Assembly: GCA_964348795.1 (NCBI GenBank)
Contig: CAYGDY010000005.1
Span: 12,027 to 76,026 of the forward strand
Origin: an uncultured Pseudobdellovibrionaceae bacterium
GTDB lineage: Bacteria; Pseudomonadota; Alphaproteobacteria; Micavibrionales; Micavibrionaceae
DNA: 64,000 nt
Reading direction: 5' to 3'
Shown here: piece by piece, positions 38,515 to 49,911 of the stretch
Numbering within the stretch: position 1 is the first letter of the stretch
Layout of the letters: each line of letters opens with the position of its first letter
Position numbers and translations under genes: made by a program
The notes under the pieces: generated by a model
Databases searched by the model: none
The model's input: the letters and a program-made list of their open reading frames with translations, nothing else
Told to the model about the DNA's origin: nothing

Positions 38515-38796
38515 ATGTATGTTTATATTTTGGCAAGTGATTACAACGGAACGCTTTATGTCGGTATGACATCGGATTTAAAGAAAAGAATTTGGGAGCA
38601 TAAAGAAGAGGTTTGCGAAGGTTTTACAAAGAAATACGACGTTAAAAATCTGGTGTATTTTGAGGTGCTGGATGATCCAGAAAATGCAATAAAACGTGAA
38701 AAACGCCTGAAGAAATACACAAGACAAGCCAAAATAAAGCTGATTGAACAAAATAACCTAGAGTGGAAAGATTTGTACGAAGAAATATGCAAATAA
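38515..38796 (+). CDS. GIY-YIG nuclease family protein (small URI-domain type)
   Basis: MYVYILASDYNGTLYVGMTSDLKKRIWEHK...KREKRLKKY: GIY...YVG motif, conserved R and E. Visibly AT-rich. Confidence 0.85.
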   Translation: MYVYILASDYNGTLYVGMTSDLKKRIWEHKEEVCEGFTKKYDVKNLVYFEVLDDPENAIKREKRLKKYTRQAKIKLIEQNNLEWKDLYEEICK

Positions 38797-45435: not shown

Positions 45436-45963
45436 ATGACCATGATATTTGAACAAAAATCCCATTACGGGTATGACGAAATTATCGCTTGTGGCGAAGG
45501 AAACATGTTTGGGGCAGGCAATGCGAAGCTTCCCCTGCCGCCCATGCTCATGTTTGACCGGATTACGGATGTTTCTCTGGAAGGTGGGGCGCATGGCAAG
45601 GGACTCATCGCGGCGGAATTTGATATTCATCCCGATCTGTGGTTTTTTGCGTGCCATTTCAAAGGAGATCCTGTTATGCCAGGCTGTCTGGGGCTTGACG
45701 CGCTGTGGCAATTGCTGGGGTTTTATCTGGGCTGGACGGGTGCGAAAGGCTCTGGTCGTGCTTTAGGATTGGGCGAGTTGAAGCTTACGGGGCAGGTTCA
45801 GCCTACCACAAAACTGGTCAAATACGTGGTGGACATCAAGCGCGTGATCAACCGCAAGCTGGTGCTTGGTATCGGCGATGGGAAAATGTACGCCGATGGG
45901 CAGTTGATCTATGAGGCCGAGGGCCTCAAGGTCGGGCTGTTTGAAAATACGGCGGCGATGTAG
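45436..45963 (+). CDS. fabA: 3-hydroxydecanoyl-ACP dehydratase/isomerase
   Basis: 175 aa. Active-site region [34 protein letters not shown] is diagnostic of FabA. Confidence 0.95.
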
Positions 45964-46669: not shown

Positions 46670-46776
46670 GGCCTTGCCCTTCTTTTTGGTATGGCTGGTA
46701 TATTAGACAGAAAACAATGGTTCTGTCAAATAAAATCTGCGTGACCTCTTCTCGCTTCCTTGCTAGAAAGGAAGCC

Positions 46777-48012
46777 ATGAATCAGACACACAGACGGATT
46801 GTGGTTACGGGGCTCGGGATTGTTTCCTGTATTGGAAATTCTGTGCCTGCGGTTTTGGAATCGTTACGCGCAGGGCGCTCGGGGATTACGTTTTCCCCCG
46901 AATACGCCGAGATGGGCTTTCGCTCCCATGTCTACGGGAGGCCGGATATCACCCTTGAAGACCACATCGACAAGCGTTTGTGGCGTTTTATGGGCGATTC
47001 TGCGGGCTATACGCATCTGGCGATGGAGCAGGCGATTGCAGATTCCGGCCTTGAGGAAAAAGATGTCGTGAATGAGCGCACGGGGATTATCATGGGCTCC
47101 GGCGGTCCCTCGACGCGGGCGCAGGTTCTGGCGGCGGATATTACGCGGGAAAAGGGGCCCAAACGCGTGGGGCCGTTTGCTGTGCCGAAATGTATGTCCT
47201 CCACCACGTCGGCTACGATTGCGACGAATTTCAAGATCAAGGGCGTGAATTATTCGATTTCCTCGGCCTGCTCGACCTCCGCGCATTGTATCGGCAACGC
47301 GGCGGAACAGATTTTGTTGGGCAAACAGGATGTCATGTTCGCGGGCGGGGGGGAGGAGCTGGACTGGACGCTTTCTGTCCTGTTTGACGCGATGGGCGCG
47401 ATGTCCTCTAAATACAATGATACGCCGGAGCGGTCTGCGCGCGCCTATGATGCGAATCGCGATGGTTTTGTGATTGCGGGCGGCGGCGCGGTTGTGGTGC
47501 TGGAGGAGCTGTCCCATGCCAGGGCGCGGGGCGCAAAGATTTATGCCGAACTCACGGGCTATGGTGCAACGTCTGACGGCGCGGATATGGTGGCCCCGAG
47601 CGGGGAGGGGGCTGTGCGGTGTATGCGTCAGGCGCTCTCTACCATTAAAACCCCCGTCACCTATATCAACACGCATGGCACGAGTACGCCTGTGGGCGAT
47701 ATGACGGAGCTGAACGCCATTCGGGAGGTTTTCGGTGCGCGCGAAGATAAGCCGTATATCAGTGCGACAAAATCCATGACGGGGCATTCCCTCGGCGCGA
47801 CGGGCGCGCAGGAGGCTATTTATTCTATCCTCATGATGCAGAACGATTTCGTTGCGCCGAGCATCAATGTCGAAACGCTGGACGAGGGCGCCGTTGGCAT
47901 GAATGTTGCGACCGCCCGCGTGGACGGGGTCAAGCACCAAACGGTGCTGTCCAATAGTTTTGGTTTCGGCGGCACGAATGCGACGCTGGCGTTGAGTAGG
48001 TTTGAGGGGTAG
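46777..48012 (+). CDS. fabB: beta-ketoacyl-ACP synthase I
   Basis: Start taken at [21 protein letters not shown] (ATG 46777). Active-site [21 protein letters not shown] and GHSLGATGA. Adjacent to fabA. Confidence 0.95.
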
Positions 48013-48027
48013 ATCGGGTTCAGTATG

Positions 48028-48097
48028 TCTCCAAAACTCCGAGTCTCCGCTTGAATTTTTTGGGGTTTGTTTTAAGCGGAGTTTAGGAGATACGGAG
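48028..48097. repeat. Cassette junction J0: L-arm (3x CTCC at 8-nt phase), 17-nt spacer, R-arm (3x GGAG at 8-nt phase)
   Basis: tCTCCaaaaCTCCgagtCTCCgcttga / attttttggggtttgtt / ttaagcGGAGtttaGGAGatacGGAG. Confidence 0.8.
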
Positions 48098-48122
48098 TTT
48101 TTTGTAGGAGCGGGCTGTAAAA

Positions 48123-48239
48123 ATGAAAATCGGAGAAATTGTTAAGATCCATATACCTGAAATTATTCGGTATTGTGAAGAAGTTGATCCACAGGAGTTT
48201 ATTCGTTTTAAAACTCCAAAACTCCGAGTCTCCGCTTGA
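48123..48239 (+). CDS. 38-aa ORF inside the tandem unit (copy 1), coding status doubtful
   Basis: MKIGEIVKIHIPEIIRYCEEVDPQEFIRFKTPKLRVSA*. The last 9 codons and the stop lie in the L-arm. Could be a gene fragment. Confidence 0.2.
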   Translation: MKIGEIVKIHIPEIIRYCEEVDPQEFIRFKTPKLRVSA

Positions 48240-48282
48240 ATTTTTTGGGGTTTGTTTTAAGCGGAGTTTAGGAGATACGGAG
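48210..48282. repeat. Cassette junction J1 (L-arm, spacer, R-arm)
   Basis: Identical to J0 apart from the extended 5' aaaactcc. Confidence 0.8.
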
Positions 48283-48307
48283 TTTTTTGTAGGAGCGGGC
48301 TGTAAAA

Positions 48308-48424
48308 ATGAAAATCGGAGAAATTGTTAAGATCCATATACCTGAAATTATTCGGTATTGTGAAGAAGTTGATCCACAGGAGTTTATTCGTTTTAAAACT
48401 CCAAAACTCCGAGTCTCCGCTTGA
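48308..48424 (+). CDS. 38-aa ORF inside the tandem unit (copy 2), coding status doubtful
   Basis: Identical to 48123..48239. Confidence 0.2.
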   Translation: MKIGEIVKIHIPEIIRYCEEVDPQEFIRFKTPKLRVSA

Positions 48425-48467
48425 ATTTTTTGGGGTTTGTTTTAAGCGGAGTTTAGGAGATACGGAG
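48395..48467. repeat. Cassette junction J2 (L-arm, spacer, R-arm)
   Basis: Identical to J1. The last GGAG(G) of the R-arm sits 7 nt upstream of the GxxExxY ATG and can serve as its Shine-Dalgarno. Confidence 0.8.
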
Positions 48468-48475
48468 GTTTTTAT

Positions 48476-48907
48476 ATGGCACTTTTGAAACAGCATTCTG
48501 ATTTTCCAGACTCTTTGAATGTTTTAACGGGCGAAGTGATGGATTGTTTTTATCAAGTTCATCAGGAGTTGGGTGCCGGTTATACTGAAAATATTTATGA
48601 GGAAGCCTGTTGTATTGAGTTTCAGAGGAAGGGGCTTTCTTTTGAAAAACAGAAATCTATACCGATTTTTTATAAGGGAGAGGTACTGAATAACAATTTC
48701 AGACTAGACCTTGTTGTAGAAAATGAAATTTTGATTGAATTGAAAGCCGTAGAACATGTTTTACCTGTTCATCAGGCGCAAATATATTCTTATCTTAAGG
48801 CCACAAAATACCCGATTGGCTTTTTAGTGAATTTCAATGTGTCGTTGATTAAAGAGGGCGTAAGACGCTACGTGAATAAAACTCCGAAACTTCAAAACTC
48901 CGCTTGA
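48476..48907 (+). CDS. GxxExxY protein (PD-(D/E)XK nuclease-fold family)
   Basis: 143 aa. GYTENIY (GxxExxY) motif and a D...E.K-like block RLDLVVENEILIELKAV. AT-rich. The C-terminal KTPKLQNSA* is encoded by the L-arm repeat. Confidence 0.8.
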   Translation: MALLKQHSDFPDSLNVLTGEVMDCFYQVHQELGAGYTENIYEEACCIEFQRKGLSFEKQKSIPIFYKGEVLNNNFRLDLVVENEILIELKAVEHVLPVHQAQIYSYLKATKYPIGFLVNFNVSLIKEGVRRYVNKTPKLQNSA

Positions 48908-48949
48908 GTTTTTAATATGGCATTAAAGCGGAGCTTGGGAGATACGGAG
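48878..48949. repeat. Cassette junction J3 (diverged L-arm, 15-nt spacer, R-arm)
   Basis: aaaaCTCCgaaaCTTCaaaaCTCCgcttga / gtttttaatatggca / ttaaagcGGAGcttgGGAGatacGGAG. Confidence 0.75.
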
Positions 48950-49058
48950 GTTTTTTGCTCCCAGATCAAAAGAAGCGCCCTGTAGGCTCTATAAAATTTT
49001 TTATAATTGTTTTAGATATTGATGGATAAGAAAAAATGTTGGGTTGTGATATGAATTT

Positions 49059-49084
49059 CTCCGAATCTCCAAAACTCCGCTTAA
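49059..49084. repeat. Terminal L-arm J4 (no partner R-arm), abutting the fabI RBS
   Basis: CTCCgaatCTCCaaaaCTCCgcttaa. Its reverse complement ttaagcGGAGttttGGAGattcGGAG matches the R-arm at 24 of 26 positions. Confidence 0.8.
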
Positions 49085-49104
49085 AAAAATAAAGGTAAAA
49101 TAAA

Positions 49105-49911
49105 ATGCAACTGATGAACAATAAAAAAGGGCTTATCATGGGGGTGGCGAATGACCACTCCATCGCGTGGGGGATGGCGCAGGCGTTGCATGGCGCGGGG
49201 GCGGAGTTGGCCTTTACGTATCAGGGCGAGGCGTTCGGCAAGCGCGTGAAGCCGCTCGCCGCGTCTTTGGGCTCGGATTTTCTGATTGATTGTGATGTTA
49301 CCTCGGAAGAGGATCTGGACAAGGTGTTTGCCGAAATCGAACAGCGTTGGGGCGTGCTGGATTTTGTGGTCCATGCCATTGCCTATTCGGACAAGAACGA
49401 GCTTCAGGGGCGGTATGTTGACACGACGCTGGCCAATTTCCTGCAGACCATGCATATTTCCTGTTATTCCTTTACTTCTGTCATGCGCCGCGCCCGTCCC
49501 TTGATGAAGCGGGGGGGCTCTGCGGTCACGCTGTCCTATTTCGGGGCGGAGAAGGTTATGCCCAATTACAACGTGATGGGCGTGGCGAAGTCTGCGCTGG
49601 AGGCCTCTGTGCGGTATCTGGCGGCGGATCTGGGGCCCGAGGGTATCCGTGTGAATGCGATCAGTGCGGGACCGATGCGCACGCTTGCGGGGGCCGTCAT
49701 TGGGGGCGCACGGAAAACATTCAAATATAACACGATCACCGCGCCTCTGCGCCGCTCGGTCGAGTTAGAGGAGCTGGGCGGGACGGGATTATACTTGCTC
49801 TCGGACATGTCATCCGCCGTGACGGGCGAAGTGCACTACGTGGATTGCGGGTATAATATCATGGGCATGCCCGCCCATGACCAGCTCGATGAATTTGGTA
49901 AGGGCGGGTAA
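49105..49911 (+). CDS. fabI: enoyl-ACP reductase (NADH) FabI
   Basis: 268 aa. KKGLIMGVANDHSIAWG N-terminus and the Y..M...K catalytic region (SYFGAEKVMPNYNVMGVAKSALEA). Confidence 0.95.
   Translation: MQLMNNKKGLIMGVANDHSIAWGMAQALHGAGAELAFTYQGEAFGKRVKPLAASLGSDFLIDCDVTSEEDLDKVFAEIEQRWGVLDFVVHAIAYSDKNELQGRYVDTTLANFLQTMHISCYSFTSVMRRARPLMKRGGSAVTLSYFGAEKVMPNYNVMGVAKSALEASVRYLAADLGPEGIRVNAISAGPMRTLAGAVIGGARKTFKYNTITAPLRRSVELEELGGTGLYLLSDMSSAVTGEVHYVDCGYNIMGMPAHDQLDEFGKGG

Follow-up and report, generated by a model that had tools for sequence, protein, structure and literature searches.

In REP/RAYT systems (repetitive extragenic palindromes, REP, with their REP-associated tyrosine transposase, RAYT; also called REPtrons), inverted copies of a short repeat flank an enzyme gene, and tens of further copies are dispersed without a gene, and the Ssn proteins are GIY-YIG single-strand nucleases acting on NTS/SRM repeats (PMC11893778). 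We analyzed a locus that resembles both: a gene for a GxxExxY protein and the inverted repeat arms that enclose it, located between fabB and fabI in a 64,000-nucleotide (nt) stretch of DNA from an uncultured Pseudobdellovibrionaceae bacterium of the order Micavibrionales (contig CAYGDY010000005.1; the whole stretch is hereafter the window, with position 1 its first letter). The reading we favor, with a probability of roughly 0.55, is that positions 48020-49090 form an array of repeat-bounded cassettes, one of which carries a minimal Cas4/RecB-like PD-(D/E)XK nuclease, and that the GxxExxY nuclease would form with its cognate repeats a system of the REP/RAYT or Ssn/SRM type built on a different enzyme fold. 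The likeness to REP/RAYT is supported as far as sequence analysis reaches. A nuclease-repeat partnership for the GxxExxY family was not found described in the literature searched, and GxxExxY/PF13366 proteins have no function assigned there, as an earlier note on this DNA had supposed.

The resemblance to REPtrons extends to a repeat that co-varies with the gene, to old, vertically inherited genes that each have a repeat class of their own, and to several diverged systems in one genome. The enzyme, in contrast, is a PD-(D/E)XK Cas4/RecB-like nuclease of ~125-145 amino acids (aa) where RAYT is an HUH/Y1 transposase, each arm is an array of three to four phased units of 8-10 nt where a REP is a single palindrome, and the cassettes lie inside operons in sense orientation. 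With Ssn the locus shares a small stand-alone nuclease gene framed by hairpin-forming repeats, dispersed repeats that correlate with gene presence, and homologues of diverged specificity; GxxExxY proteins, however, belong to PF13366 and Ssn to the GIY-YIG family cd10448, and the GxxExxY repeats are arrays of units, known here from sequence alone. Terminal inverted repeats with several phased sites, an excess of gene-less over gene-bearing copies, and occupied and empty sites with flanking direct repeats in two cases recall transposons with multi-site ends (Mu, Tn7) and the miniature inverted-repeat transposable elements (MITEs) with their autonomous insertion sequences, but the GxxExxY cassettes have no known transposase family, no recent gene-bearing duplicates and no general fixed-length target duplication.

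The GxxExxY protein

The open reading frame (ORF) at 48476-48907 matches TIGR04256 (141.4 bits, E 1.6e-41, cut-off 35) and PF13366 PDDEXK_3 (139.4 bits, E 8.5e-41, cut-off 22), the latter being the sole Pfam family given; together with invariant catalytic motifs, these profiles bear out the earlier note's identification of a GxxExxY ORF with a restriction-endonuclease-like block. The window protein carries G35xxE38xxY41, D78, E88-x-K90 and Q102xxxY106, and residue conservation was taken from a 39-sequence alignment of homologues, which shows G33, G35, Y41, D78, E88, K90, Q102, Y106, N119 and F120 without variation and E38 as nearly invariant. All motifs are retained in 131 of the 135 GxxExxY genes of the order, and E...D...ExK...QxxxY is what we take to be the motif set of RecB/Cas4-type nucleases. 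An AlphaFold2 model of the window protein (predicted local distance difference test score, pLDDT, 91.6) was compared with the PDB by Foldseek; the best structural match, itself weak, was Cas4 SSO0001 (4ic1; E 5e-3, template modeling score, TM, 0.45), followed by lambda exonuclease-type matches with E > 0.1, and a PDB sequence search with the protein gave no match. Since no conserved cysteine column was found in the 39-sequence alignment, the protein is not Cas4 proper; it shares the Cas4 motif set, but has neither conserved iron-sulfur (Fe-S) cysteines nor a CRISPR/cas context, its neighbors being fabB and fabI, and is ~60 residues shorter than SSO0001 (143 vs ~203 aa).

The family is large, with 17,838 clusters at 50% identity reaching E ≤ 1e-3. 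Among the best 150 family representatives, 30 (P0122-P0261) have two tandem GxxExxY domains in 250-295 aa, which suggests a dimeric working unit. A PADLOC search for defense systems returned no match, and a reading as a defense system was ruled out on that ground.

Mirrored arms built from one repeated unit

A 1.07-kb insert (48020-49090; 38% G+C against a window average of ~54%) separates fabB from fabI and consists of four arm-bounded units, just one of which holds a GxxExxY gene (Table 1). The earlier note had placed this gene between an R and an L arm, and our repeat search puts both within a few bases of where it had them. In the window, every arm comprises three units of 8-9 nt, phased and with a CGGAG-type core (e.g., AAGCGGAG TTTAGGAG ATACGGAG); the pattern AAGCGGAG-N4-GGAGA-N2-CGGAG has 9 matches in the window, all within 48029-49082, where shuffled sequences lead one to expect 0.06. 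The R arm (48444-67) and the L arm (48878-905) of the gene-bearing unit are 82% complementary over 28 nt.

The association of such genes with inverted arms, which the earlier note had proposed from this one locus, recurs across the order. The order survey comprised 201 genomes, of which 76 hold 1-7 GxxExxY genes and 125 are gene-less, and 135 GxxExxY loci were fetched from the gene-bearing genomes; with a threshold set at the 99th percentile of shifted controls for the flanking inverted repeats, 104 of the 135 genes are framed by arms. These arms follow one grammar, in which a T-rich outer end and AAC precede 3-4 units that each combine C(A/G)C with a variable 4-mer (among them TAAG, GAAG, AGAG, CAAG, AAAG, GGAG, GAAT, AGAT and AACG), with 1-3 nt between units, and all units of one element carry the same variable 4-mer. 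The three GxxExxY genes of the window's own genome have the same arm design with the different cores CGGAG, CCAAG and CAAAG/CGAAG. Arms of the same units are present at two distant Bacteroidota loci, which came from a contig scan with a single protein and were used solely as a cross-phylum check of the grammar.

Within an element, the R arm and the reverse-complemented L arm are 96% identical in the constant core letters and 83% in the two variable letters, compared with 47% in the inter-unit spacers and a baseline of 29-32%; 60% of the mismatches are transversions, with no excess of G:U-compatible mismatches. Because the spacers are poorly matched and the mismatches mostly transversions, a continuous DNA or RNA stem is not what is conserved, and we judge the conserved feature to be a phased array of one motif, mirrored at both ends. 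Core class switches 31 times along the protein tree, where shuffled labels give 72 switches. The common 4-mer within each element and the few class changes on the protein tree point to a shared reader, which we read most simply as the encoded GxxExxY protein itself; linkage of gene and arms alone would also yield a protein-tree signal of core class.

Two departures from the simple arm pair were seen. In a Marinilabiliaceae metagenome-assembled genome (L075:2870-3468), the GxxExxY gene is flanked on either side by a complete gene-less foldback (R-37 nt-L) rather than enclosed by one arm pair, and the units are of the CAC-NN-AG type, as in the window's order. Two contigs of another genome (G164:C7 and C9) have long tandem (CGGAGAAA)n runs at their ends, the arm unit being expanded there to a satellite-like array.

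Arm abundance follows the gene

An exact 5-mer/4-mer triple scan of the window's own genome proved too strict, and grammar patterns were used instead. These match 45 arms in 33 places in that genome, compared with 0 in shuffles, and several more arms are degenerate or solo. Gene-less copies within this genome are 80-97% alike over 30-96 nt, and gene-less R-L foldbacks with 6-8-nt loops and of the same class as the gene arms are present. In the order survey, three consecutive CRCNNAG units have a median of 10 hits in the 76 gene-bearing genomes vs 1 in the 125 gene-less ones, a control pattern standing at 1.2 in both groups (Mann-Whitney p = 3e-21 and Spearman 0.70 for arm count against gene over 201 genomes, relatedness ignored). 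Within genus g11, four gene-less species have 0-1 arm hits vs 4-74 in nine gene-bearing ones. The association also holds by class: TAAG arms have a median of 13 in genomes with a TAAG-armed gene and 0 in those with other classes only, with a mean of 0.03 in genomes that have no gene, and the corresponding values for CGGAG arms are 6, 0 and 0.11. Arm copy number, whose correlation with the gene the earlier note had suggested as a check, accordingly follows gene presence both overall and class by class.

If the arms were run by another enzyme, integron-like or REP/RAYT-like, the GxxExxY gene would be a frequent passenger. Such passive carriage fits the window array, whose arm-bounded units hold unrelated cargos, and it fits a locus (L080:2188-2937) at which one arm pair encloses an unrelated 92-aa ORF, with no Pfam or PHROG match, followed by the GxxExxY gene. 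We give it only the slightest credence: arm abundance tracks the GxxExxY gene and its class over the surveyed genomes, GxxExxY is the sole family recognized between arms of the own genome, the remaining cargos matching no family, and that genome has neither an integron integrase above cut-off nor a Y1/RAYT transposase. The integrase model TIGR02249 gave a generic tyrosine-recombinase match only (78 bits vs a cut-off of 265), and this model also stayed below cut-off in all 14 control genomes. By inspection, no attC model having been run, the arms show no GTTRRRY and consist of three like units ending in TTTTAAG/CTTAAAA. An integron cassette array was ruled out, with no IntI found and arms that are not attC-like, and a role of the arms as REPs of a RAYT was ruled out by the lack of any match to PF01797 (HUH/Y1 transposase) in the own genome.

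Beyond the window, that genome has a nested arrangement at G000:C13:40351-40518, where a complete CGGAG-class foldback and a REP-like palindrome (CCCTGCTTTCGCAGGG) lie within an arm pair of the CCAAG class, and the pairing of foldback and palindrome is seen again on contigs C27 and C28 (GGATCCCTGCTTTCGCAGGGATGAC there).

Operon context

Both neighbors lie on the strand of the GxxExxY gene at 98 loci and both on the opposite strand at 1, a median of 5 nt separates the upstream stop codon from the R arm and one of 15 nt the L arm from the following start, and the window cassette lies in the sense orientation of the fab operon. In the window, the last GGAG of the R arm stands 8 nt upstream of the GxxExxY ATG and could act as its Shine-Dalgarno sequence, the L arm encodes KTPKLQNSA, the C-terminal tail of the nuclease ORF, and provides its TGA stop, and the Shine-Dalgarno sequence and ATG of fabI follow the last L arm and its A-rich outer end. 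No promoter or terminator signal of the cassettes' own was found beyond chance; an Rfam search gave no family match, and a known RNA family or terminator was ruled out, none having been found.

These features would suit an RNA-level element, in which the arms pair in the operon transcript into a stem for processing or insulation, comparable to the RNase III-cleaved stems of rRNA intervening sequences, and a selfish ORF rides in the operon with a nuclease unrelated to the arms. The nearly uniform sense orientation, the tight filling of the intercistronic gap, the Shine-Dalgarno sequence at the end of the R arm, the L arm overlapping the stop codon, the lack of an own promoter or terminator and the fold energy of the junction hairpins (z ~ -4) all speak for it. 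We nevertheless hold it to be quite improbable, as the inter-core spacers are barely complementary (47%) with mostly transversions and no G:U bias, a stem has no need for three like units per arm or for six units that switch core together, gene-less arms occur also solo and at many other sites, arm abundance is linked to the nuclease gene class by class, and Rfam returned nothing.

Occupied and empty sites

The fabB|fabI gap was compared in 40 relatives, in most of which it is 0-30 nt, some relatives having unrelated small genes there. The 48020-49090 insert is an insertion into an otherwise tiny intercistronic gap. At the same site, one relative (G012) has a gene-less CGGAG foldback, another from a different family of the order (G040) has a GxxExxY gene with CGGAG arms, and the NCBI assembly L079 has the same cassette arrangement as the window, with aa identities of 59% for GxxExxY, 82% for FabI and 75% for FabB. 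Two of the closest homologues of the window protein (58-59% identical), also with CGGAG arms, sit between pdhB and pdhC. CGGAG cassettes are found at both fabB|fabI and pdhB|pdhC, and thus gene and arms occur together in different operons.

Within genus g11, the pdhB|pdhC junction is empty in four genomes (G202, G149, G011 and G189), in two of which (G202 and G149) the genes overlap by ATGCCGATTAA; it holds a CGGAG cassette in three (G114, G066 and G120), and five other species have unrelated inserts, some with an apparent reverse-strand ORF. In G120 the overlap 12-mer ATGCCGATT[G/A]AT stands on both sides of the cassette with 1 mismatch, in G114 a flanking 11-mer is 9/11 identical, and at the fabB|fabI site of L079 a 14-nt direct repeat, ATGATGA[T/A]TAATTT with 1 mismatch, flanks the cassette; cross-paired controls had direct repeats of at least 12 nt in 31/3000 cases and of at least 14 nt in 2/3000. 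Across loci, direct repeats of at least 11 nt occur at 11/103 vs 17/600 controls (2.9 expected, p = 0.001), an excess in the tail only. Insertion can, on this comparison of junctions, apparently duplicate its target.

In G011 and G189 (L187 and L188), pdhB and pdhC do not overlap, and the end of pdhB has a degenerate 11-mer (ATAAGGATTAG), a 6-nt spacer and ATGCC; the junction may represent the footprint left by a lost cassette or, alternatively, a duplication older than the insertion. In G040 (C2:78958-81021; L088 and L028), a TAAG-armed cassette lies upstream of fabB in addition to the CGGAG-armed one between fabB and fabI, and a further GxxExxY cassette lies ~6 kb away.

A homing-type nuclease would cut an intact R-L foldback, and repair from a gene-bearing copy would put the gene between the half-sites, which would then be immune. 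The gene does stand exactly between R and L, same-class foldbacks with 6-8-nt loops exist in the own genome, and inverted half-sites suit a dimeric PD-(D/E)XK enzyme. The flanking duplications of 12-14 nt at two sites argue against repair-based homing, which would not duplicate the target; homing moreover predicts several near-identical copies per class and genome, where each class is seen with a single old copy, alongside tens of foldbacks that remain unconverted, and the L075 gene lies between two complete foldbacks and not within one. We regard homing as very improbable.

Candidate specificity residues

At residue 19, 39 of 44 xAAG-class proteins have K/R vs 1 of 33 xGAG-class proteins (22 of which have Gly), a signal that is a lead and not a result because the covariation has only 4 supported independent contrasts, 2-3 in the same direction and none in the opposite one. 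Around Q59, itself nearly invariant, positions 56, 57 and 60 differ in 77-92% of class-switch pairs vs 23-35% of same-class pairs.

Weighing the reading

Several results weigh against a nuclease that acts on, and moves with, cognate repeats. No gene was detected in five arm-rich genomes, and some arm classes, the CAGAG class of the own genome among them, are without a matching gene; the statistics of association take no account of phylogenetic non-independence, and the residue-19 contrasts are few. One gene-less foldback folds no better than its shuffles. A general fixed-length target duplication was not found among the 103 loci (mean best repeat 8.0 vs 7.7 nt in controls), and both clear duplications are at junctions of host genes with an actual or a predicted former overlap; because of this overlap, only insertions that duplicated it could survive, and a pre-existing duplication could be the source of the flanking repeats. 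GxxExxY paralogues within a genome are at most 67% identical (median 44%), both flanks are shared in 10 of 12 cross-genome pairs at ≥ 80% identity, and a search of 5.8 billion proteins found no homologue closer to the window protein than 62% identity, with no sign of recent movement (the identical protein was found on 1 further contig, apparently of the same sample and broken at repeats).

From the diverged paralogues, the shared flanks and the intact motifs it follows that the cassettes are old and mostly vertically inherited, and in lifestyle the gene-bearing ones appear to resemble RAYT genes, unlike active insertion sequences. The analogy drawn in the earlier note, to autonomous elements with their MITEs and to REP/RAYT, is upheld by genome architecture and population structure; it fails insofar as the gene copies, with paralogues of ≤ 67% identity, are unlike those of an active autonomous transposon.

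Mostly vertical inheritance, with long-lived and intact genes and about one old gene per arm class, would also be expected of a domesticated nuclease that cuts or binds the arms for a host process (transformation control, recombination or replication restart), neither gene nor arms being mobilized and the arms near the gene serving autoregulation or as cognate sites. The Cas4-like fold is in keeping with this, Cas4 enzymes acting on single-stranded overhangs. Ssn/SRM sets a precedent, 42% of Ssn genes lying between copies of the hairpin repeats cleaved by the enzyme (PMC11893778). Domestication is disfavored by the patchy distribution within genera, by empty and occupied sites with flanking duplications, which show the cassette to be inserted DNA, by related cassettes in different essential operons (fabB|fabI and pdhB|pdhC), and by the 62% of the order's genomes that have no gene; we consider it unlikely.

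We therefore keep to a GxxExxY nuclease with cognate repeats, for which we infer binding, cleavage and mobility as follows. The protein, probably as a dimer or higher oligomer, would read the phased cores on both arms and cut at or near them, the arms being its cognate sites, and gene-less arm pairs would be partners served in trans. Such a system would persist mainly by vertical descent, with rare new insertions that at least sometimes would duplicate ~11-14 bp of target. The pairing would tie a very large family with no assigned function to a specific, easily synthesized array of DNA motifs. If it holds, single genes associated with a repeat family of their own would be known for a third enzyme fold besides HUH/Y1 and GIY-YIG, many AT-rich inserts within essential operons would be accounted for, and small sequence-specific nucleases that differ in specificity between close paralogues may be obtained.

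A more far-reaching proposal, which we put forward as a doubtful possibility, is that PF13366/GxxExxY proteins are the dedicated nucleases of minimal repeat-bounded elements in several phyla, undescribed in the literature searched. The enzyme would read a 7-nt unit (C(A/G)C plus the variable 4-mer), with residues ~19 and 56-60 setting the 4-mer specificity, assemble on 3-4 phased units per end, promote rare intercistronic insertion with ~11-14 bp duplication, and maintain gene-less arm pairs. If true, the family would be a natural library of small nucleases with short and easily re-targeted specificities.

Layout of the insert

Coordinates are collected in Table 1. The two neighboring 185-bp units of the earlier note (100% identical) and a gene-less R-109 nt-L unit (48926-49082) were both recovered; the array opens with a solo L arm, which that note had not stressed. 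Its view of the gene-less units as derivatives stands only in that the units exist: the short window cargos have no detectable similarity to the GxxExxY profile (hmmsearch, E ≥ 1.8), which rules them out as deleted GxxExxY genes and leaves derivation by deletion unsupported. The 38-aa ORF in cargo c1, which has no match in Pfam or PHROG, reads the L arm in the same frame as the nuclease ORF and ends in KTPKLRVSA-TGA, the tail common to both being KTPKL..SA.

Table 1. Features of the fabB-fabI insert and adjoining genes in the window
Feature	Position	Strand	Basis and remarks
fabA	45436-45963	+	ORF list
fabB, upstream host gene	46717-48012	+	ORF list; stop 48010-12; 75-77% aa identity to FabB beside related cassettes
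Solo L arm (L0), first element of array	48029-48055	+	Repeat search and arm pattern
Two tandem 185-bp units, 100% identical	48029-48213, 48214-48398	+	Repeat families D1, D2
Each 185-bp unit: L arm, 15-nt spacer, R arm, 108-nt cargo c1	48029-48398	+	
R arm of unit 1	48071-48097	+	Repeat search and arm pattern; second copy 48256-48282
38-aa ORF in cargo c1	48123-48239	+	Sequence; repeated at 48308-48424
L arm of unit 1	48214-48240	+	Repeat search and arm pattern; second copy 48399-48425
Partial third copy of 185-bp unit, 78 nt	48399-48476	+	Repeat search
R arm of gene-bearing unit with T-rich outer end	48437-48467	+	Core arm 48441-67; AAGCGGAG TTTAGGAG ATACGGAG
GxxExxY/PF13366 nuclease gene, 143 aa	48476-48907	+	Profiles, alignment, model
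L arm of gene-bearing unit, inside ORF 3' end	48878-48905	+	Repeat search and arm pattern; 20-nt spacer after
R arm of last, gene-less unit	48923-48949	+	Repeat search and arm pattern
109-nt cargo c3, no recognizable gene	48950-49058	+	Sequence and profile search
L arm of last unit (49059-85) with A-rich outer end to 49089	49059-49089	+	Repeat search and arm pattern
fabI, downstream host gene	49105-49911	+	19 nt after last L arm; 82% aa identity to L079 FabI beside cassette

A 17-nt direct repeat at 48465-48481 and 48906-48922 (GAGGTTTTTATATGGCA / GAGTTTTTAATATGGCA, 15/17 identical) brackets the nuclease ORF with its L arm. Lying immediately ahead of the following R arm, the second copy corresponds to the Shine-Dalgarno spacer and first two codons of the GxxExxY gene, and the repeat may be a scar of recombination or duplication.

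At 38515-38796, the window encodes a 93-aa GIY-YIG protein (PF01541, E 2.2e-14) between sufB and sufC, followed by a GTCAT...ATGAC-type palindrome. This protein may be an Ssn-like nuclease, and the published analogue of the GxxExxY system may thus be present in the same window.

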